Shown one piece after another: positions 1-11,285 of a stretch of DNA of 59,050 nucleotides (the stretch's first letter is position 1; each line of letters opens with the position of its first letter). The translations under genes and the position numbers were made by a program. Source of the stretch: Alphaproteobacteria bacterium. GTDB lineage: Bacteria > Pseudomonadota > Alphaproteobacteria > Rs-D84. The notes beneath the pieces are model-generated. The model was not told the DNA's origin, did no database searches, and worked only from the letters and a program-made list of their open reading frames with translations. The stretch is taken from the NCBI GenBank assembly GCA_031549365.1, contig JAVBPX010000002.1:1-59050 (forward strand). Reading direction: 5' to 3'.

Positions 1-284
1 GCACGAGCTTTTTGAATGGCAACAAGCGCCATTGGATCTACCGTAGGCGCATGCATAGTAGCCGACGAACCGGCAGGGGTGGATGCACCACCCCCATCGG
101 CTGCAAGTAAACGGTTAAAGCCAGCTGCTTCCAAATCTTTGGCATGACGCTGAACTGCCGTATTACTCATTCGTTCTTGAAAAGCCATCTGTTCACGAGA
201 TAACTGTTTATTGGTGGAATTTGCATCTTTCTGAGATAGAAAGTTCAAAACATTTCCACCAGCTGCAGCAATAGCACTCCACAT
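1..284 (-). CDS. Microvirus DNA pilot protein (VP2/H-like), 5' part only
   Basis: Manual translation [72 protein letters not shown]... carries the VP2 signature [11 protein letters not shown]..DL.AAG.N; RBS AAGGAG upstream; runs off the window edge. Confidence 0.88.
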
Positions 285-295
285 AATCAACTCCT

Positions 296-2104
296 TTAAA
301 CTATATGAATGCCTGGACGAGGATTACGAGCAAATACACGGCGACCATGAATGGTATAGCCAATGCAGATTTGCATTTGGTCTTCATCGCGGACAGAGAA
401 TGAACGGTCAGTGGGTTTTTCATAACGCCAAGCAGCAGACAATACAGGTTCGCCTTTGTTATACAAACGAGCCATAGTCCAGTGTAAGAACGTATCTTTC
501 ATATGACCATGTAACGTAGATGGAATATGCATTAATTCCGAATAACGTGGAACGAAACCGAAAGACTCTTCACCATTTGCAGAATTTGGATAGATTTCTA
601 CACGTTTAATATCCTGTTCGCCAACATGTTGAAATATTGGATTTGGGATATCAAAACGAGATGAACGCAAATACATCTTTGGAAGTATATTTTGATACTG
701 AGAACGTGGCATAATATGCATAACAGACATGACATAACCATGTTCAATTACCTTAATATGCAACGGTTGATTTTTACCACCTGTAATACCATGTCCGGCC
801 AAGTTACCTTGTGGGGATGTGCCATCAGTAGACGAAGTTTGCAATACTTCAGAGAACACAATCGGCAAACGGAAAGAGCCATGGAAAATAGGGCGCTGAA
901 TACGTTCGTCAGGAATACGAACACCAAACATTGCCAAAGTAAATTCAACTGCACGAGCACCGGCAGTTTGTAATACTTCACCAAAAGCCTGCATACGAGC
1001 AGCAATACGGAATGCAATAATTGATGCAGCGGTAGTTTGAATACCTTCAATATTACTTAAATCCGCGTATTGGCCTCCCGCTGTATAAGTTGGAGCTGTT
1101 GGCATAATTAAACCTCCTGTCCAGCCAGTAGGCAATCCAGCTATAACCGTATCCGGGGAAGCCTTTAAAATATGCTGATATGTAAAAGCGGGAATACCAG
1201 AGGTAGAAACCGTTTTACACCACATCTTCAAAACAGGATTATCCGCAACATTATCAGATTGTAATTCAATCCACTCTGATACAGGGTAAGCAACGTTCTT
1301 TAAAAACGTCAAACTAAATCCTCGCCACAGCGCAGGATTAGAATTTCCATTACCCAATAGCATCATTTTCTCTTCAGACCACTTAAACACTGTTTTTGTA
1401 ATAACAGGAGCAATCGGAGGAGTTAAATTAACATCACCAGTAATCGGCAACATCGCTTGTGGGCCACGTTGAGTATTGGGCAGGGCACGACCGAAATAAT
1501 CTCTCGACCAAGCTTTTGGAAATATACCATCAACGAGCAAATTATAACCTAATGGGTTACCGGATGCATCTTGAAATTCATATGCACCATTAATGAAATC
1601 TTCATACTTGGTTAAATCCAATTTCTTTACGAAATTCTGATCACGATAGTTTTCATTGATAATATGCATATAGCAAACTATGGGCAGGGCACAAACTTGT
1701 AAACCAGCGCCAACAATGACTTTATTGCCCGTATCAGGGTCAATATAATTGGTTGGCAAGCCTAAGAAATCAGCCAAAGAGCCTGATTCAAAGCCAGTTG
1801 CTGGAATAGTAACGGTTGGCATTAATGGATTTGCCATACCATCTTCGCCACCAGTCAAGAAATCATCCCAAGAAATACCTAATTTATCAAATAATTGACG
1901 CCAAGGCACTTGGTATGTATCAACACCGACAAATACATCATGCATAGTCGGTGCAACTTGTGGTAGAAAACGAGTTAAATTTGCGGCTTCAACACGAAAT
2001 GAATCGCCTGGAAACACTTCGAATAGGGTCGACGGATAAACTAAGCCCATATTATTGGTACTTGTTTTGGTATGGCTCAAATTATGAGCATGACGTTTCA
2101 ACAT
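296..2104 (-). CDS. Microviridae major capsid protein (VP1/F)
   Basis: Motifs [54 protein letters not shown] are typical of microvirus MCPs. ATG at 2104 has AAGGA at normal spacing; the ORF track starts at 2113. Confidence 0.95.
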
Positions 2105-2228
2105 CTTTATCATCCTTTTTTGGTGGATTAACTAAATTTTGTATGGAATAGACTACACCCTCGACAAGAGGGATGACGATAGTTGCATTTTTTAAAATGC
2201 ACAAAACAGCTTTGATTATTTTATTCAT
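2082..2228 (-). CDS. Small phage protein (48 aa), hydrophobic N-half and charged tail
   Basis: [48 protein letters not shown]; GGAGG RBS; ATGA overlap with the upstream gene and overlap with the VP1 start. Confidence 0.65.
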   Translation of the reverse strand: MNKIIKAVLCILKNATIVIPLVEGVVYSIQNLVNPPKKDDKDVETSCS

Positions 2229-2359
2229 CGTAAAATTCCTCCGCGAGAGCCAAAAGGCGTTTTGCGAGAGACGCGCTTACGGTGATAAGACGAACGACCA
2301 TAAGAACGACGAGAACGACCAGCCGAACGGCGGCCACGATAAGACCTAGAACGAAACAT
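2225..2359 (-). CDS. Microvirus DNA-binding/packaging protein (VP8/J-like, 44 aa)
   Basis: MFRSRSYRGRRSAGRSRRSYGRSSYHRKRVSRKTPFGSRGGILR is Arg/Ser-rich with C-terminal RGGI, like gokushovirus VP8 (RGGIRL); AAGGAGG RBS. Confidence 0.88.
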   Translation of the reverse strand: MFRSRSYRGRRSAGRSRRSYGRSSYHRKRVSRKTPFGSRGGILR

Positions 2360-2366
2360 AATTAAA

Positions 2367-2396
2367 CCTCCTTGTAGTTTTATGTTCACAAGGAGG
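2367..2396 (-). promoter_or_regulatory. 9-bp inverted repeat pairing with the VP8 Shine-Dalgarno
   Basis: CCTCCTTGT-N12-ACAAGGAGG; on the minus strand the 3' arm is the RBS of the first phage gene. Confidence 0.55.
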
Positions 2397-2405
2397 AAAA
2401 GAACA

Positions 2406-2433
2406 AATCGTCATAACGCGTATTATGAATCAG
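2406..2433 (+). other. dif-like XerC/XerD site, inverted copy (phage side)
   Basis: AATCGTCATAA-CGCGTA-TTATGAATCAG has the CATAA-N6-TTATG dif architecture. Confidence 0.6.
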
Positions 2434-2449
2434 TTTAGTTTTATCCTAA

Positions 2450-2477
2450 ACTATTCATAATATACATTATGCGACAT
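2450..2477 (-). other. dif: dif site / prophage att junction (XerC/XerD)
   Basis: Minus strand ATGTCGCATAA-TGTATA-TTATGAATAGT; 18 contiguous bases (CGCATAATGTATATTATG) are identical to E. coli dif. Confidence 0.8.
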
Positions 2478-2641
2478 TAAGAACACTCCGTTTTACCTAC
2501 ACCTCGCATATTTCAGCCACTTTCGAACACATCGCCCCAAACACACATTTGCATACAATAATTTTATAAATTTGAATTATTTTTATATTTTTTGGATTTT
2601 GTTTAGCTTTGTACCGATCAATCCGACCTATTTTTCATATG

Positions 2642-2665
2642 AAAAATCCCGAAAATTTCGGGATT
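2642..2665 (-). terminator. Rho-independent terminator of tadA
   Basis: AATCCCGAAAATTTCGGGATT hairpin followed by a T run on the minus strand at the stop codon. Confidence 0.6.
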
Positions 2666-3203
2666 AATTTTGCTGCGCCTTACACGTTTTCATCATGTTT
2701 TCCAGTCGTTTTTTGGCCTTGTCCTGGCGTTTTTTCTTGAAAAAATCGGTTAATAATTGGCCTGCCTCTGCCGCACATTCGAGATCTTCGATCACTTCGG
2801 GGCGAAATAGATGCGAATCTGTATCATAAACGCGCGAATTTGTGAAAATTCCGCCGCCCTTGATGTCCCTGGCCGCCAAAATAACCGTCTTAATTCTGGC
2901 GAATGATATTGCTGTTGCACACATAGCACACGGCTCTAATGTTGTAAATATGACGCAATCATCCAAAAATTTTGACTTTTGATTTCGGGTCGCCTCGTGA
3001 ATAGCAACAATTTCTGCATGAGCCATCGGGTTATTTTTTGATTGTACGCGATTTTCGCCGCGCCCGACAACCTCCCAGTCGCCACGATCGCCACGACGCG
3101 CCACAACAGCACCAATTGGCACATCATCGTGCCGCATGGCTTTTTTGGCCAACTGGATCGCTGTTTTCATCGGATTTTTGTTTCGACGCCCTAAAAAAAA
3201 CAT
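2664..3203 (-). CDS. tadA: tRNA adenosine(34) deaminase
   Basis: VPIGAV, HAE and LEPCAMC deaminase motifs. Confidence 0.9.
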   Translation of the reverse strand: MFFLGRRNKNPMKTAIQLAKKAMRHDDVPIGAVVARRGDRGDWEVVGRGENRVQSKNNPMAHAEIVAIHEATRNQKSKFLDDCVIFTTLEPCAMCATAISFARIKTVILAARDIKGGGIFTNSRVYDTDSHLFRPEVIEDLECAAEAGQLLTDFFKKKRQDKAKKRLENMMKTCKAQQN

Positions 3204-3249
3204 TGAAAACCCCTATTTTTCTGATATTATGGCATCAAAGGACCAATGC

Positions 3250-3801
3250 ATGCAAGTAATTTCAGGAACATTTCGCGGCAAAAAATTATGCCTGCCCGAT
3301 ATTGCGCGCCCGACATCAATGCGGGCGAAACAAGCACTCTATTCCATGATAAATGGATTGATTGAATTGCCCGTCAATACAGTATGGGACGCGTTCGCTG
3401 GCAGCGGCGCATTCGGAGTTGAATTTATTTCTCGTTCTTGGTCGCAACATATTGTTTTTACTGATATTTCCAAAAATTCAATTGATTGCATTCGCCGCAA
3501 TATTTCGTCCATTTCCGGGAATAAAATGGCAACAATTTTGCATACAGACGCCCTGTCCGCGGTATCAAAATTTGGAGATTCCGATATTATATTCATCGAC
3601 CCACCGTATTCGCAATATGACATAATTGATCCATTTTTAAAAAAATTAACATCAAAAATAACGCCGGAATCGTTGCTGGTACTGGAAATTGAGGTCACCC
3701 AACCAATACCAAAAACTATCGAAGCCGGATATGAAATACTACGTGATCGCACATACGGTCGTGCCCGATTTTTGATATTAAAACAACGAAATATCAAATA
3801 A
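3250..3801 (+). CDS. rsmD: 16S rRNA m2G966 methyltransferase RsmD
   Basis: MQVISGTFRGKKL, RPT, DAFAGSGAFG, FIDPPY, YGRA motifs; start moved to the ATG at 3250 after AAGGA. Confidence 0.9.
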   Translation: MQVISGTFRGKKLCLPDIARPTSMRAKQALYSMINGLIELPVNTVWDAFAGSGAFGVEFISRSWSQHIVFTDISKNSIDCIRRNISSISGNKMATILHTDALSAVSKFGDSDIIFIDPPYSQYDIIDPFLKKLTSKITPESLLVLEIEVTQPIPKTIEAGYEILRDRTYGRARFLILKQRNIK

Positions 3802-3845
3802 ATATTTTTTCAAATTCATCTAATTTATCAAGAGGTAAAGATAAC

Positions 3846-5123
3846 ATGAAAAATCAAACCGCCCTGCACCATTTATCAAACGGCACCGCCGTCATATTGG
3901 ATCCATTAAATCACGTTATGACAACATCCATGGGGGTATGGTTTAATGTTGGGTCGCGCAATGAAAAAGAATCTGAATTTGGCATTTCGCACGTTTTGGA
4001 ACATATGGCATTCAAGGGAACAAAAAATCGAACATATGCCGAAATTAATCAATTCATAGAAGATCGTGGCGGCATAATAAACGCATACACAGGGTTCGAT
4101 GTAACGGCATACCATATAAAAATATCAAACGAACATTTGAAACCCGGATTGGAATTATTGGCCGATATTTTAAAAAATTCGATTTTTCCAGCGGACGAAT
4201 TGGAAAAGGAAAAGAATGTCATACTCCAGGAATTGAATATGTACGAAGACATTCCAGAATCGGTCATCGAAAATGAATTAATCGAAAACATTTTTCGAGG
4301 ATCGCCACTGGGGCATACAATTATCGGATATGAAAAAAATATAAAATCATTTACACGCGAAAACTTAATTGATTATATGAACGCACATTACACAACGGAA
4401 AACATGGTGATTTCTTTGTCTGGCGCCGGACTGGATGATCCACAGGGTGTTTTGAATATGTTAAACACGTTGTTTTCAGATTATACCATCAAAAAAACCG
4501 AAAAATTCACTCCATCAAAACTAAAAACCACACAAACACATAAAGCCAAAGCTGACCAAAATATGGTTTATTTAAAAATCGCGTTTCCAGCCACGAATAT
4601 TTTGAATCGGGTTTTGGATGTTCATACAGCCCTGTTTTTACGCATTATGGGTGCAGGAATGTCATCACGATTATTTGACGAAGTGCGCGAAAAACAAAAT
4701 CTGGTTTATAATATATCCGCGGGACGATTCAGCTTTGAAGATGTCGGATCCGGAATTATATCTGCATCGACAGAGCCAAAAAACATTGATAAAACCATTC
4801 GTGCGATTGCGGCCGAATGTCGCGCAATAATAAATGATCGCCCAGCAACAGACGCCGAATTGTCCCGAGCCCAAGAATGTTTAAAATCCCGCCTGGCGAT
4901 GACAATGGAAGAATCTATGAACCGGGCGGAAATATTCGGATCGCATTATTTACAATTTAATGATGTTTATAACATATCAGAATTGGTTAATATTGTTGAC
5001 GCAACGACACTGAATGACATTCAATCGGTTGCAAATAACATTTTATCAAACACCCCATCAATTGTAACATACGGCCCTGGCGACGATTCAAAAATGAAAG
5101 AATGGATTGAATTATTTAAATAA
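3846..5123 (+). CDS. M16 family zinc peptidase (pitrilysin/MPP-like)
   Basis: GSRNE...GISHVLEHMAFKGT (HxxEH), INAYT, SSRLFDEVREK. Confidence 0.93.
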   Translation: MKNQTALHHLSNGTAVILDPLNHVMTTSMGVWFNVGSRNEKESEFGISHVLEHMAFKGTKNRTYAEINQFIEDRGGIINAYTGFDVTAYHIKISNEHLKPGLELLADILKNSIFPADELEKEKNVILQELNMYEDIPESVIENELIENIFRGSPLGHTIIGYEKNIKSFTRENLIDYMNAHYTTENMVISLSGAGLDDPQGVLNMLNTLFSDYTIKKTEKFTPSKLKTTQTHKAKADQNMVYLKIAFPATNILNRVLDVHTALFLRIMGAGMSSRLFDEVREKQNLVYNISAGRFSFEDVGSGIISASTEPKNIDKTIRAIAAECRAIINDRPATDAELSRAQECLKSRLAMTMEESMNRAEIFGSHYLQFNDVYNISELVNIVDATTLNDIQSVANNILSNTPSIVTYGPGDDSKMKEWIELFK

Positions 5124-5165: not shown

Positions 5166-8100
5166 TTAAAACCGAAATTCTGCACCAACGCGCAATGTAT
5201 TTACAACAGCATCGGCATTGTAATGATATTCGTATGAAACATTTACGCTGGTTCCATATGCGTGTGCAAATTCAACACCGGCGCGCGCATTCATCCAAAA
5301 ACCGTCGGACGATACGCCAGAATAATCAAAATTGCCATTTGTTCCTGCGAAATGGAACGAAGTATCCAAATTATCCATCCCCATAACATCGTATTCAATG
5401 CCCAAACCGATAAACGGGCGCAAATAAGACATACGGGTGATATATATGTTTTTGCCCAATGTTGCTTCGTACCCTGGGGTTATTGAAACATATGCATCCT
5501 GTTCTACGACCATATAATCGTTGTCGCTTTCCTGTTCTGTGTAATCATACCCTGAATAATATCCTGCGCGAATATATCCACGACCCGCGGCATAAACGCC
5601 CCAAATTTTGTGAACAATGCCCCATTCTGTTGAAACACCAAATGCAGAACCCGATCCCGATAAATGACCAACGTATTGCTGTTCCCTCTCGATATCAAAT
5701 TCATGCAACGAAACCATTAAATTTCCATACAGTTTTACTGCTTCTTTGCGGCCCATGATACCGTATACTCCAAAATGCACGCTGGTATCGGTTGTTTTTG
5801 GATTGTTGATTTTGATTTCCATATCGTTACGAGCACCACCCATAAATCCACCAAATATTAAATTACGGTTGATACGACGATCAAATCCAGCCAGGCCAGT
5901 TAACATGTTGCCGTCCGGAGAACCATACGAAATACCATCCAGAGAAATCATACTGTATGATAAATCTGCCCATAAATTATTTCGGTTTATATTACGCTTC
6001 CACAAAAAAGTATCCATAATTTGTCCGGACACCGTTGACGCCATATTTCTGTTGGATAATGAAATACTGTGGGCAATTTGCTCTGCCCCGCGAATATTAA
6101 ATAACGATACAAAATCGCGAATTGGGTCTGGGTTATTATCCAGTTCGTAATTTTGTAATAATGGGTATAATTCCTGCATGATCCCAGAAAATGGGCTGTT
6201 TGGCAACAAAGTTGTTATAACGGGCAAATAATTATGTGAAAAATCAGGATTCCAGCCGCCATTAATCAATCCCATTTCAATTAATGAATCCATCGCACCT
6301 GCTGTTTGAACATCGTTTGATGTTGGGCTATCTGACACTTCGACAATTGGCTGAATTTCTTGGATTTTTGCTGGCGATTTATCCGGATCAAACACAATTT
6401 TAATATCATGGTCGCCCAACAAATAGTAAATATAAGCAAAATCGTTATCGGGCCCAGACACAATATCTTGGGGATTTAAATCGCCGGATGCGTTTGTCGT
6501 TGATGCCAAATCAACACATTGTGTCCCTGTTAAATTACAGAAGTAAACATTCAAAAAACGCATTACGCTATCGCCCAATTCAGTAATATCGCCATCAACA
6601 TGAATCAATGTAATTTCAGAATTTGCGTCCAAATTTAACACATCAAATAAACTGATACTTATTTGACGTCCATTATTGCCATTGGTTAAATTTGTAATGA
6701 AATCACCACCAACTGTTACGTATGGCGTTGTGCGGGTCAAATCATCCACAGCAATGTTTAATGCGCTGACGTCATTAAAAATATAATTTCCACCAATATT
6801 TAATGATGTTAACTGATTAAATTTAACCCCTTCTGACACATCGGTGCCAACCGATACATTTAATCCATTGTTCAAACCAATACCGTCATAATAAGCATAC
6901 GATGATTTAAATATCATATTGCCAGACAGTCGGTTCAAACCCCCATTAACTGTTACGTTTTTAGAATCGATTGTTAATGTTTTCGATGCTTGTGTAATAT
7001 CTCCATCCACATTTATCGAATCCGCGACAATTGTATAATTATAAGTATTTAAAATATTAACAGACCCAGCACTATTAAAATCGGACACCGCGCCGTAAAT
7101 CAAATTTCCACCAACATCAAACAGGTACGACGACACTAACTTTGTTCCAGTAATATTTAATTGACTGTCTGCGTTTTGATTGGTTTTAAGGCTGGAAACA
7201 GAAACAACAGACACAGCATTCCAATCCATTTCCCCAGAATTTACAACATTGCCAAATTGCATCGTGCCGCCATCCAAAATTATAGAAGCAGAACTGAGAT
7301 TGGTCAAATTTCCAAAAAATACTGATGCGGCCCCAGCATCAACCATCAAATTTGAACCGGCATTGTTCACAGATACGCCCGAAATCACTGTGTTGCCCAC
7401 GGTTTTAATAAATAAATCAGAATTATTTGTTATTCCATCCGCAATCGTTACAGTTGCGCCAGAATCAATCGTTAATGTTTGTGAATTTACTATGCCGCCC
7501 TGGGTTTGAAATGCGCCAGTTGTGATGAATGTAAAATTATCACGAAATACGTTTGCCGACCCACCATAATTTGTTGTAGAACCATCGTTTATAATTTCGC
7601 CAGCAATTGAAATATCGCCCGCCCGCAATCCGGCAACCGAAACATTGTTTCCATCCAAAATATAAGTATCCAGGTTTAATTGGCTGGTCGTGCCGGCATC
7701 CGTTATTAAATGATTAACAAATGTATCAATTGATGATACCAAGGTCATGGTGCCGGAATTTCGTAGGATTCCGGCAAAATTTATGCTTTCTGCGCTCCAA
7801 CCTGCGGTGCCCGAATTGATTGAATTGCCCGTAACATCGATTGTGTCGTTTGCAATCATATCCAGAGTTCCTGCATTATCAATGTATCCATTAACAATTA
7901 TATTTTCCGCGCCCACACTCAAATCCATTCCAGAATCAACAACAATAGAATCCAACACTATATCCCCAGATATTGATGTTATGGAATACAAAGCTGATAA
8001 AATATTAATACCACCACCCGTGGCTGTGTTCGTCCCATCCATGACAATAGACCCCGACAAATTAATATCAGAATCAGAATTTAACGCAGTTCCAGTTAAA

Positions 8101-11100
8101 TCCAATTTTCCAGATGCCGAATTAAAGCTGTTCACTGTTGCTATGTCCGCCAAATCCCATGACATAACTGCATTATTTACAACATCTAAAAATGATGCTG
8201 ACGTGGATGTCAAAGAAACATTTCCTGCCCCATTATTTGTCCAATCGCCACCAGAAATTGTTCCCGTCAATTGATCGGTTATTATTGACAGGGCCTGAGA
8301 AGTTAAAATATCCCCATCAATTATAATATTTGAATCAGATGATAATTCAAAACCGTTTATCCTGATATTCAAAGATCCATTCGCACTATCGGCTGTTGCC
8401 AAAGAAATTAAATCGCCCCCAATATTGGCATCCCCAAAAATTTTCATTTTGGCCCCTGATGCGCCCACAACAACGATTTTGCTATCTACGGAATCCGAAA
8501 TATTCATATCATCATAAATTTCCAAATAACCGTTTGTTCCCAAAAAGTCCAGCGTCATTAATCCAGAATTATCCATATCACCAAATACCATCAGAGAATT
8601 AAACGACAAACTAGCAACACCAGAATTTTCAAAATATCCATTAAATACGCCAGCCCCGTAAATGCCCATATTTAATGTGAACGTTCCCGCATTATCCAGA
8701 TAACTGGGGCCGCCGTTTCCGAAAACAAAACTATCCTCGGCATTAATGGTTTGAACCGCGCCAAATAAATTTTCGACGTGTTCCTTTACAGACACAAGAC
8801 CTGATGAAAATGTCAGAACGCCTTTGTTAGATACTGATTGTAATATAATTTCTGCACCACCTGCGGCTTTCTGTGAAACAAAAATTAATTCTGCCCCTGC
8901 ATTATTTAATAACGCACCATCAGACACAGATATAAAACCTTCATTTGCAGTCATTGTTAAATCGCCACTATTTATCAATCCCGCACTGCCGGCCAATAAT
9001 ATATACGTAGCCGAATCCACCACCATCATTGCACCAACATTATTTTCAACGCTACTGGCCGAACCGTTTGCGCCGAACTGAATAACATTTGCAGAAACAT
9101 TCAAAACAGAATTATTAATCACAGACCCAAAAACACTAAACGCACCAGGCACAGACGTTATATCCATTTGGGCACCAAAATTAACAATGTCTTTTTCAAC
9201 TCGTATAGAATCAATCGAATTAATTGTCGTTATGCTGTTGTTTCCCAAAATTTTATTTATTCCGTCAATTGTACCGGAATATAAATTACCACCGATAAAA
9301 ACTGGGTTCAAAGATGCGGACATATTCAAAATATTTCCTGTATTAATTACATCACCTGATGCAACCAATATATCAGCAGTTAAATACATATCTGAATTTA
9401 AATTGAATGCAACCAGATCCGTTGTCCCGTTATAAATATTTCCGGTATTAATTTCATCATTTGTTAAATTTAAAACAAATGTTTTTATGTTACTTTGAAA
9501 TAATGTTGATAAATTCCCAGCTGAAAAAGTCCCTGTCCTTAATGCGAAAACTGTATTGGCTCCAGATAAATTTAAATCCCCTGTAATTGTTGTTGAATTC
9601 AACACAGAAATTTCATCCCCGGCCGCATAAACATTATCGTTGCCCGACAACATATATCCCGTATTATTAACATCGCCAGAAACAGACCACACCAAGCCAT
9701 CAACCCCGAATTTGTTGGAATTATTTAAATCCCCACCCATGGATATGTTGTCGCCAACCATTGATATGTTCGCACTGTTGACAACGTCATACCCAATATT
9801 TATTGATCCGGACGATGTTGATAAAATCATGGATCCCGACAAATTTTCAATTGATACCAAACCAGCCCCGGGATCCATACCAATTTCAATTAATGCGAAA
9901 TCCTGTAACACAAATGAATCCGTTGCCGATCCATTCGATGAAATCATGTCTGATATTTTTGCAGTCCCATTATATGAACCCGATGCGCCATCGGCGCTGA
10001 AACTGCCCATGTTGCTGATGTTGTTGGATTGAAATCCACCGCCTGAAAGTATCAGAGAATATGTATCGGCAATATTTATACTGCCTGCAACAATTATGTT
10101 ATCCGCGCCAGAATGGGTTACAGTAAAAGTTTTTGAATCCAAAATATTTAAAGAACCGTTGCCCTCTTCCGTCCCGTTTAAATTTAAGTTGCCCGCAATA
10201 TCCAATACCCCCAATGCGTCGACAATCATATTACCAATTTCGCCTGCGTGTATATTAACATGACTGGTCGCATCAATATCAATTCCACCAACAAAAATGT
10301 CCCCACTTGAATCAAAAGACAAAAGCCCAGAATTTGCAATCAACACGTTGCCATCAATTCTTATGGCTCCATCTGATAAATTTGAAATTGACACATCCCC
10401 GGAATCAATCACCAATCCGCCGCCAATTGAAATTTCCCTGTTGGTCCCAGGCACAGCGTTCAGAGATAAAATTGTTGTCGATCCATTGTCCACAGAAACA
10501 TAATCGCCAACAACAATTCCATTATCTGAATTAATTAATAAATTTCCGGCGGAATTTTCAACATATCCATCAATAAGAATTGATGAATTTGACATACCGA
10601 TTGATGATAATATCAAAGAAGTTCCCAAATTAACAACATCCCCAGCAACATGTATATTATCATTTCCCTGTAATTCCATTGACCCGTACCCGTTTGATAC
10701 AGATGCAATTTCCAACGAACCGCCCGATATAATATTAAATTCAAATCCGTAATTTGCGATGTTTTGAAAAATCAATTGAGATCCAGAGCCCGCGTTAATC
10801 TGTGTGATTGCAGTGTCTTTGGCCTGGACAAAATTTGAAAAAGTTCCGCTATAAAAATCACCATTAACTGTTAAAAACCCGCCATCACGAATATTAATTA
10901 ACATCGATGGATTATTTGAAATATCGGATGCAACATTTATAACATCGCCGCCAATAGTCAGCGTTGAAAAATCCAAAGAAATTGTTACAGCATCACCGTT
11001 ATTTAACGGATCCAAATTTATTCCATCAACTGTGCCGTTATAAACATTTCCGCCGATTGATGAATTTGTGGTTCCCGTTTGGGTTAATGATAATGTTTCG

Positions 11101-11285
11101 GAATTTTTTACATCGCCCGCGACATCCCAATAATCCGCGGACGCGTTGATTGGTGGATCACCAGCATCGATTTGAATTTCGGCACAAATGCCGTCATCAC
11201 AGTCGGAATCCCATGCGGCGCGCGCATCCCAAGTTGCAATTGGCGCAATCATGGACAGTAATAAAAAAATACCCTTTTTAAACAC
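5166..11285 (-). CDS. Large autotransporter (type V secretion) surface protein, 2039 aa
   Basis: Signal peptide, long G/N/S/D/I-rich beta-helix-like passenger, C-terminal beta-barrel ending in aromatic F (VGAEFRF); GTG start. Confidence 0.85.
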   Translation of the reverse strand: MFKKGIFLLLSMIAPIATWDARAAWDSDCDDGICAEIQIDAGDPPINASADYWDVAGDVKNSETLSLTQTGTTNSSIGGNVYNGTVDGINLDPLNNGDAVTISLDFSTLTIGGDVINVASDISNNPSMLINIRDGGFLTVNGDFYSGTFSNFVQAKDTAITQINAGSGSQLIFQNIANYGFEFNIISGGSLEIASVSNGYGSMELQGNDNIHVAGDVVNLGTSLILSSIGMSNSSILIDGYVENSAGNLLINSDNGIVVGDYVSVDNGSTTILSLNAVPGTNREISIGGGLVIDSGDVSISNLSDGAIRIDGNVLIANSGLLSFDSSGDIFVGGIDIDATSHVNIHAGEIGNMIVDALGVLDIAGNLNLNGTEEGNGSLNILDSKTFTVTHSGADNIIVAGSINIADTYSLILSGGGFQSNNISNMGSFSADGASGSYNGTAKISDMISSNGSATDSFVLQDFALIEIGMDPGAGLVSIENLSGSMILSTSSGSINIGYDVVNSANISMVGDNISMGGDLNNSNKFGVDGLVWSVSGDVNNTGYMLSGNDNVYAAGDEISVLNSTTITGDLNLSGANTVFALRTGTFSAGNLSTLFQSNIKTFVLNLTNDEINTGNIYNGTTDLVAFNLNSDMYLTADILVASGDVINTGNILNMSASLNPVFIGGNLYSGTIDGINKILGNNSITTINSIDSIRVEKDIVNFGAQMDITSVPGAFSVFGSVINNSVLNVSANVIQFGANGSASSVENNVGAMMVVDSATYILLAGSAGLINSGDLTMTANEGFISVSDGALLNNAGAELIFVSQKAAGGAEIILQSVSNKGVLTFSSGLVSVKEHVENLFGAVQTINAEDSFVFGNGGPSYLDNAGTFTLNMGIYGAGVFNGYFENSGVASLSFNSLMVFGDMDNSGLMTLDFLGTNGYLEIYDDMNISDSVDSKIVVVGASGAKMKIFGDANIGGDLISLATADSANGSLNIRINGFELSSDSNIIIDGDILTSQALSIITDQLTGTISGGDWTNNGAGNVSLTSTSASFLDVVNNAVMSWDLADIATVNSFNSASGKLDLTGTALNSDSDINLSGSIVMDGTNTATGGGINILSALYSITSISGDIVLDSIVVDSGMDLSVGAENIIVNGYIDNAGTLDMIANDTIDVTGNSINSGTAGWSAESINFAGILRNSGTMTLVSSIDTFVNHLITDAGTTSQLNLDTYILDGNNVSVAGLRAGDISIAGEIINDGSTTNYGGSANVFRDNFTFITTGAFQTQGGIVNSQTLTIDSGATVTIADGITNNSDLFIKTVGNTVISGVSVNNAGSNLMVDAGAASVFFGNLTNLSSASIILDGGTMQFGNVVNSGEMDWNAVSVVSVSSLKTNQNADSQLNITGTKLVSSYLFDVGGNLIYGAVSDFNSAGSVNILNTYNYTIVADSINVDGDITQASKTLTIDSKNVTVNGGLNRLSGNMIFKSSYAYYDGIGLNNGLNVSVGTDVSEGVKFNQLTSLNIGGNYIFNDVSALNIAVDDLTRTTPYVTVGGDFITNLTNGNNGRQISISLFDVLNLDANSEITLIHVDGDITELGDSVMRFLNVYFCNLTGTQCVDLASTTNASGDLNPQDIVSGPDNDFAYIYYLLGDHDIKIVFDPDKSPAKIQEIQPIVEVSDSPTSNDVQTAGAMDSLIEMGLINGGWNPDFSHNYLPVITTLLPNSPFSGIMQELYPLLQNYELDNNPDPIRDFVSLFNIRGAEQIAHSISLSNRNMASTVSGQIMDTFLWKRNINRNNLWADLSYSMISLDGISYGSPDGNMLTGLAGFDRRINRNLIFGGFMGGARNDMEIKINNPKTTDTSVHFGVYGIMGRKEAVKLYGNLMVSLHEFDIEREQQYVGHLSGSGSAFGVSTEWGIVHKIWGVYAAGRGYIRAGYYSGYDYTEQESDNDYMVVEQDAYVSITPGYEATLGKNIYITRMSYLRPFIGLGIEYDVMGMDNLDTSFHFAGTNGNFDYSGVSSDGFWMNARAGVEFAHAYGTSVNVSYEYHYNADAVVNTLRVGAEFRF

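Follow-up and report, generated by a model that had tools for sequence, protein, structure and literature searches.

We read two dif-like sites that face each other near the start of the window (the whole stretch of DNA analysed here, 59,050 nucleotides) as the left att junction of a temperate, recombinase-less microvirus of ~4.24 kb at the dif site of its host. In this reading, to which we give a probability of about 0.55, XerC and XerD inserted the phage, likely through a folded two-site attP. The initial annotation of this DNA had described the pair as the attP hairpin itself. It is instead a prophage junction, composed of a hybrid dif and a phage-borne partner, and the true partner of the phage site lies 4.2 kb away on another contig. 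As a whole, the initial interpretation is partly supported.

The prophage and its host

The window is the start of contig C6 in a 911-kb assembly (G000) of 15 contigs that is 97.6% complete, and it opens with minus-strand phage genes. The 5′ part of VP2, the DNA pilot protein gene (3..290), was recognized by tblastn with VP2 of free relatives and continues on contig C2. It is followed by VP1 (296..2113), whose product is a 605-residue major capsid protein with a Pfam Phage_F match at E 3.1e-66 and 53–64% identity to the capsid proteins of nine free microvirus genomes or contigs. A small 48-residue ORF (2082..2228) lies between VP1 and an Arg-rich gene; similar DNA is found in L057–L061, and a comparable reading frame is present in relatives. 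The Arg-rich gene (2225..2358), the first gene of the phage, has AAGGAGG upstream, encodes 44 residues, and gives tblastn matches in L002 and L058. Pfam returned a match for neither of the two small proteins, and the Arg-rich one is, by its composition only, probably a DNA-packaging basic protein.

The rest of the prophage is on contig C2. The two contigs share an exact 141-bp overlap inside VP2, with which C2 begins in inverse orientation, and C2 carries the remainder of VP2 followed by VP3 and VP4 (tblastn with VP2 of free relatives; Pfam). VP4 contains the Rep domain PF23343. The earlier proposal that a microvirus is integrated beside the sites is supported. About 30 nt past VP4 lies a third dif-like site in the same direction as site 2 (arms GCACCGCATAA and TTATGAATAGT, 7-nt spacer CGCCATA), and the host gene gpmI comes next. 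At the other end of the prophage, the site pair adjoins host intergenic DNA (2478..2663) with a terminator-like hairpin (2645–2665) of the deaminase gene, and then a tadA-like host deaminase (2664..3203, minus strand; Pfam matches and synteny) that adjoins dif in relatives too. Read along the minus strand of the window, the order is therefore host tadA, site 2 forward, 16 nt, site 1 reverse, the Arg-rich gene, the small ORF, VP1, VP2, VP3, VP4, site 3 forward (C2), and host gpmI. Sites 2 and 3 are direct repeats that bound the ~4.24-kb prophage, the gene content of which is VP1–VP4 plus the two small ORFs. The host part of the window also includes a 2039-residue ORF at 5166–11285 (minus strand).

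Contigs from run X1, which is probably the source sample, include one that spans positions 1–4000, and they hold only the integrated form. A two-variant bubble is present at window positions 1–30, where contigs at ~15 and ~17 depth join the main one (~31) inside VP2. We therefore conclude that two prophage variants exist in the population, which explains the assembly break between C6 and C2. Neither a circle junction nor an empty site was seen in the run X1 contigs; contigs drop rare variants, so absence from the sample is not shown by this. Exact and gapped pattern searches for a free genome of this phage gave 0 matches in IMG/VR and JGI metagenome contigs.

No recombinase gene is present in the prophage, as the three PF00589 matches of the genome all lie elsewhere, on C14 and C15. 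The best NCBIfam matches of the host recombinases are XerD at 301.8 bits and XerC at 300.7 bits; the XerD-like and XerC-like proteins fall below the equivalog cut-offs, and one is above the tyrosine-recombinase subfamily cut-off. The element has the features of an IMEX: it carries no recombinase of its own, it sits at the host dif between direct dif-like sites, and the host has XerC- and XerD-like genes, on which we infer that integration depends. Related prophages occur in metagenome-assembled genomes titled Candidatus Enterousia sp., Alphaproteobacteria bacterium, and uncultured Rickettsiales. The host is a Candidatus Enterousia-like alphaproteobacterium.

The paired sites and the ancestral dif locus

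Site 1 occupies positions 2406–2433 on the plus strand (arms AATCGTCATAA and TTATGAATCAG, spacer CGCGTA), and site 2 occupies 2477–2450 on the minus strand (arms ATGTCGCATAA and TTATGAATAGT, spacer TGTATA). Their XerD-type arms point at each other across a 16-nt linker (2434–2449), which adds a stem extension of 4–5 bp on either side of a 7-nt loop (2439–2445). The whole stem pairs 2423–2438 with 2446–2460 in 15 bp with a single bulged C. Coordinates, arms, spacers, and stem all reproduce the initial description, and folding supports it. The predicted single-stranded fold of 2396–2487 has an energy of −13.7 kcal/mol (z −4.5), against a mean of −4.66 (sd 2.01) for 200 dinucleotide shuffles, none of which folds as well. 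In this predicted fold the XerD arms, the extension, and part of the XerC arms are paired, and the spacers are open. A repeat search likewise reports the pair as an inverted repeat (I1) of 19 nt with 84% complementarity.

The motif itself is rare. Within the 59-kb window, sites 1 and 2 are the only two occurrences of the core CATAA-N6-TTATGAAT, and 100 shuffles give an expectation of 0. A looser pattern, CATAA-N6-TTATG, is found at four places in the 911-kb assembly: sites 1 and 2, one ORF on C1, and one place on C15 that is unlike dif. The C1 match (4630–4657) was considered as the other end of the prophage and rejected because it lies within a 415-residue ORF.

A dif-type pattern was matched in 33 of 41 related genomes. 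The XerD arm TTATGTATAGT is found in 12 of the 30 dif sites listed, together with GCGCATAA-type XerC arms and the spacers TGTATA, TATATA, TGCATA, or TGAATA. Two relatives, G003 and G004, have one dif each, with arms ATGTCGCATAA and TTATGTATAGT and spacer TGTATA, at a locus that shares tadA, rsmD, gpmI, or C2 genes with the junctions in the window assembly. An inverted partner site at this syntenic dif locus was found in neither genome. Prophage-free relatives thus have a single syntenic dif and not the two inverted sites that the initial annotation named as a sign of a host feature. The locus occupied by the prophage is therefore that of the ancestral dif, and the pair does not belong to the host. 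That both sites are bacterial or due to chance, or that the hairpin is only a terminator, is a very improbable account. The XerC arm and spacer of site 2 are host-like, as such an account would have it, but site 1 occupies the att-site position of free phage genomes, the motif pair is not expected by chance, and a terminator scan of the window called the deaminase terminator at 2645–2665 and not the hairpin of the site pair.

The dif of G003 and G004 differs from site 2 only at the sixth position of the XerD arm, where site 2 has A instead of T. The A matches site 1 and pairs with it in the hairpin. Site 2 is the only canonical dif-like site in the assembly and is the lysogen's sole usable dif. 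The XerD arm of site 3 also has A at position 6, where every other dif seen in the family has T. Among 299 family genomes, a dif-like site with the A variant is found in the window assembly only, apart from one unrelated match in G141. Since the variant is present in both sites 2 and 3 and confined to this one assembly, our best reading needs either a host-specific change or a later conversion.

Several other observations concern the dif region of these hosts. GC skew near the locus is about −0.105 on C6 and about 0 on C2. In five relatives (L014–L018), gpmI and tadA are convergent neighbours ~50 kb from dif, whereas in the window assembly and G004 they are codirectional and flank dif, one on either side, so the terminus region has undergone rearrangement between genera. 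G001 has five copies of one dif-like site plus a sixth close variant (L056 16–43 and 14607–14634; C5, C11, and C13), including two inverted copies at both ends of a 14.6-kb contig; these may represent several Xer-exploiting elements in an array, or else a segment that can invert. In G018, two dif-like sites 135 bp apart (L055 238–265 and 401–428) are inverted relative to each other and identical in XerC arm and spacer.

Att sites of related microviruses

The initial annotation proposed to look in related free phages for the paired motif with compensatory changes. Compensatory changes and a CTXphi-like design were indeed found, but the pair is not general: the nine close free relatives comprise four with a pair, four with a single site, and one with none. 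The single site of L002, L004, L010, and L005 lies just upstream of the Arg-rich gene, opposite to the gene direction, and combines the spacer and XerD arm of the host with a degenerate XerC arm. Two prophages, L057 and L058, are of this single-site type and are bounded by plain direct dif repeats. L003, L006, L007, and L009 have a site of the single type plus an inverted partner that overlaps the VP4 stop, with a host XerC arm, an 11–13-nt spacer starting TGT or TTT, and the XerD arm TTATGTTGAG. The window's site 1, intact and directly upstream of the first phage gene, has the place and orientation of the partner or sole site of these relatives. In L008 (Chicken microvirus mg7_25), no dif-like site was found between VP4 and the Arg-rich gene, and this phage may be a strictly lytic member. 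The free genome L102 has one forward site, similar to site 2 in spacer, XerD arm, and flank; it shows that a site-2-like layout can be phage-borne, without settling the case of the window.

Pattern scans of IMG/VR and metagenomes added seven further pairs, and a second capsid lineage (24–31% identity) in the same host family also has site pairs. The two-site module is present in the free genomes L003, L006, L007, L009, and L095 and in the prophages L059, L060, L061, L091, L093, L094, and L054B. From the 11 metagenome pattern matches, L066, L068, L069, and L070 were chance matches and were excluded before alignment; L067 is the same as L063, and L078–L080, L087, and L091 are duplicates of other loci. 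At L054 3111, a motif resembling the long-spacer site was ignored because it lies in a capsid gene without a partner, and blastn with short att regions was too insensitive for paired-site counts in the phage collection.

In the relatives, one site of the module has an XerC arm identical to the host's and a spacer of 9–13 nt, and the inverted partner has a spacer of 6–7 nt. The long spacer opens like the host spacer, with TTTA in L061 (dif TTTATA) and TGT or TGTATA elsewhere. Loops are 3–12 nt, with 35 nt in one case (L054B). In all seven paired-site prophages, the long spacer remains at the paired end, which reads host-type XerC arm, long spacer, phage XerD arm, loop, and intact partner, and the far end is a perfect dif. 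In all five lysogens checked, the genome has no canonical dif other than this far-end one. The crossover is on the XerC side in seven of seven, and the well-spaced partner served as the crossover site in none. In the window phage, the end of VP4 on C2 (L011 1820–1848) reads as a decayed host-type XerC arm of the long-spacer relatives, a resemblance which hints that this phage may descend from the long-spacer design.

The module can face either way with respect to the genes. In the 17 relatives with recognizable genes (two others were left out), the long-spacer site has its top strand on the coding strand in 11 and on the non-coding strand in 6, and the group of six includes L095, a complete free genome. 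The prophages seen in this group of six cannot come from a packaged-strand hairpin; a duplex route, or a cruciform on the replicative form with loops of just 3–12 nt, must be considered. As the origin of the reversed relatives, inversion of the phage body by Xer was examined and rejected: their XerC arms are not swapped, as they would be after an inversion, and L095 has the same orientation. Two further loci deserve mention here. In G002 (L054 1–8800), two prophages of the second lineage lie head to head around a canonical dif, and a pair with 9-nt spacer and 35-nt loop forms the end of the right-hand prophage. L062, titled Bacteroides fragilis, carries a prophage of the window phage's group and an Enterousia-type dif, with an inverted dif-like site 82 nt on; its label is probably a binning error.

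We then consider whether the pairs covary. Alignment A2 comprises 18 paired-site sequences; L054B, with its 35-nt loop, was left out, and L094 was added by hand. In the A2 structure, 91.7% of cells are paired overall and 98.7% in the XerD-arm helix, where five pairs change on both sides and a G-G mismatch within the arm is conserved. Columns 35–46 hold CG in 11 sequences and UA in 7, and columns 36–45, which lie outside the arms, hold UA in 6, CG in 2, and GC in 1. The covariation score, which rests on few columns and on related sequences, is 0.123 versus 0.083 (sd 0.008); 0 of 500 shuffles reach 0.123, and all slid versions score lower. Two inverted copies of any protein-binding motif will have complementary arms, and arm pairing by itself would be trivial; the case for folding rests on the stem extension and on the over-long recombining spacer. 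Together with the stem covariation, the seven of seven XerC-side crossovers with dif regenerated make a folded, Xer-dependent attP likely for the group.

Crossover at the window prophage and routes of integration

The junctions of the window prophage differ from those of its sisters in where the spacers went. At the left junction, the spacer and the XerC arm next to it are both of host origin; at the right junction, both are the phage's. The crossover therefore lies at or to the right of the boundary between spacer and XerD arm, where phage and host spacers share only ATA. By this assignment, site 2 is a hybrid in which the XerC arm and spacer of the host are followed by an XerD arm of phage type, site 1 is the phage's own inverted dif-like site (an attP2-like 'site b'), and site 3 retains the phage XerC arm and spacer. 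Sites 3 and 1 share the core CATAACGC, followed by G or CA, and then TATTATGAAT.

In the excised circle, the XerC arm and spacer of site 3 would rejoin the XerD arm of site 2, beside the linker and site 1, and the rejoined site would form a near-perfect hairpin of ~65 nt. The predicted energy of this circle hairpin is −20.0 kcal/mol, versus −15.6 for the prophage pair with the same parameters. Host XerC and XerD would integrate the phage via this two-site attP, which most likely works in a folded state, either as a single-stranded DNA hairpin or as a cruciform arm in the replicative form. We propose folded two-site integration mainly because sister microviruses of the same hosts carry the CTXphi-like module.

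Which recombinase acts first is suggested by the junctions. The strand that Microviridae package is the coding one. Here the forward site has its top strand on the coding strand, but an XerD-side exchange would imply the bottom strand. The arrangement of spacers contradicts the textbook reaction of CTXphi, in which XerC cleaves the packaged strand, and it fits XerD-side exchange on duplex DNA equally well as on a folded minus strand. As both spacers of the window phage are short (7 and 6 nt), a duplex site could work without folding. Three other schemes, namely recombination through site 1, XerD cleavage of a plus-strand hairpin, and XerC cleavage of a minus-strand hairpin, were rejected, as each predicts the pair beside VP4 or genes antisense to site 2, and neither is observed.

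The initial annotation favoured an XerC-only exchange of the plus strand. In a strict CTXphi mechanism, the packaged plus strand folds, XerC swaps one pair of strands with dif, and replication resolves the junction. Eleven relatives, including the prophages L059–L061 and L091, fit it in every detail, and the window prophage agrees in the coding-strand position of its forward site and in its left junction, where hybrid site, loop, and intact partner are laid out as predicted. This mechanism predicts, however, the phage spacer on the left and the host spacer with the host XerD arm on the right. We observe the opposite: the host-type TGTATA is on the left, having stayed with the host XerC arm, and the 7-nt CGCCATA, which is like the spacer of site 1, is on the right. 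Furthermore, the window phage has no over-long spacer, and its right junction is not a usable dif. We consider the strict mechanism improbable for the window prophage.

Dif recombination by the replicative form through a single site is how VGJphi, TLCphi, enterobacterial gokushoviruses, and Ebor integrate. An ordinary double-stranded IMEX integration of this kind, via the single forward site, is possible for the window phage, though we doubt it. Site 1 would then lie outside the recombination substrate and serve as a hairpin for complementary-strand synthesis, act in the control of excision, or be a relic of an ancestral single attP. The prophage topology is the same for the duplex and folded routes, and the 11 to 6 split in module orientation is what duplex substrates would give. 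Phages with a single site exist, both as prophages (L057, L058) and free (L002, L004, L005, L010, L102). The 7-nt spacer is within the 6–8-bp range of Xer sites, and an XerD-side crossover fits a duplex reaction, for which TLCphi is a precedent of XerD-initiated integration, according to the text available of PMC6744903. What duplex integration leaves unexplained is the retention of the inverted partner in at least 12 phages or prophages of two capsid lineages, the stem covariation beyond the arms, and the recombination of the sister group at a site with a 9–13-nt spacer when the well-spaced partner was used in none of seven. In addition, no DUF3653/XafT-like domain was found in the phage proteins scanned with Pfam. 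We prefer integration by XerC and XerD through a folded two-site attP.

This preferred reading can be set against known Xer-dependent phages. CTXphi (Val et al. 2005, as summarised in PMC3089051) integrates through a forked hairpin of attP1 and attP2 by an XerC-only single-strand exchange. According to that summary, its two inverted sites have spacers of 12 and 7 nt, the XerC arm resembles the dif1 XerC arm, the long spacer opens like the dif1 spacer, the strand exchange is stabilised by base pairing beside the cut, and integration produces one new dif and two sites that are dead. The window phage resembles CTXphi as a single-stranded DNA phage without a recombinase that targets dif and has two inverted dif-like sites that pair. 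The likeness of the sister microviruses extends to the host-identical XerC arm, the over-long spacer with a host-like start, and the partner with a 6–7-nt spacer, and that of the sister prophages to the hybrid site and intact partner at one end and a new perfect dif at the other. There are also clear differences. The window phage and its relatives are icosahedral Microviridae, whereas CTXphi belongs to the Inoviridae, and the loop is 3–12 nt (35 nt once) versus about 90 nt. The exchanged strand is non-coding in 6 of 17 relatives. In the window phage both spacers are short, the crossover is on the XerD side, and a functional dif was not regenerated at the end away from the pair, which has a 7-nt spacer. 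It is thus an apparent variant with short spacers and an XerD-side crossover, and we infer that the window holds the junction of an Xer-dependent microvirus whose two-site attP belongs to a family of CTXphi-like designs.

To our knowledge, the one known XerD-first element is TLCphi. This satellite phage is XerD-initiated and XafT-activated, has a degenerate XerD arm, and encodes XafT (DUF3653) (PMC6744903). It resembles the window prophage in XerD-side initiation, as the spacer distribution of the latter suggests. In contrast, the window phage has an intact XerD arm and no XafT/DUF3653 domain in the phage proteins scanned (Pfam), and TLCphi is described in the available text of PMC6744903 without an inverted partner site.

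Among the Microviridae, the folded or CTX-like route is not as new as the initial annotation supposed. Krupovic and Forterre (2011; PMC3091885) proposed XerC/D integration for the Bacteroidetes microvirus proviruses BMV1–7 (Alpavirinae) and, in the portion of the article available, noted an extra dif-like sequence near one terminus of BMV4–6 that they called reminiscent of CTXphi single-stranded DNA integration. Compared by description only, BMV1–7 are likewise recombinase-less microvirus proviruses between dif-like direct repeats; they differ in host phylum and capsid lineage, and that portion of the article (PMC3091885) contains no analysis of folding, spacer length, crossover, or covariation. 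Enterobacterial gokushovirus prophages (Kirchberger and Ochman 2020, PMC7062461) and the Rhodobacter microvirus Ebor (PMC11980548) achieve lysogeny via host XerCD and a dif motif carried by the phage. For the gokushoviruses the description is of a single dif motif, in an available text that does not use the terms hairpin, inverted, stem, or secondary structure (PMC7062461), and one dif motif is mentioned in what is available on Ebor (PMC11980548), versus the two-site module here. In the main-text literature searched on Microviridae attP, XerCD, IMEX, and Enterousia, we found no published analysis of a folded attP in Microviridae and no paper linking these microviruses to Enterousia.

A broader scheme, which we offer as speculative and rather unlikely, is that Enterousia microviruses have a folded attP not tied to the packaged strand, the short-loop inverted pair being extruded from the supercoiled replicative form or formed on either strand, with mirror-image versions by lineage. 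One version, CTXphi-like, would mimic the host XerC arm and combine a long spacer with an XerC-side crossover. The other, that of the window phage, would mimic the XerD arm and combine short spacers with an XerD-side crossover; if true, it would be an undescribed class of Xer-exploiting element.

The findings indicate that these gut microviruses, hitherto known only from rodent, lemur, cattle, and chicken samples, are temperate, and the prophages together with the dif mimicry assign uncultured Candidatus Enterousia-like Alphaproteobacteria as their host. With single sites, long/short pairs, a short/short pair, and both gene orientations, the group forms a natural series for the rules of Xer hijacking. 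If Microviridae do use a CTXphi-like att site, two unrelated families of single-stranded DNA phages would have converged on borrowing the chromosome-dimer resolvase of their hosts.
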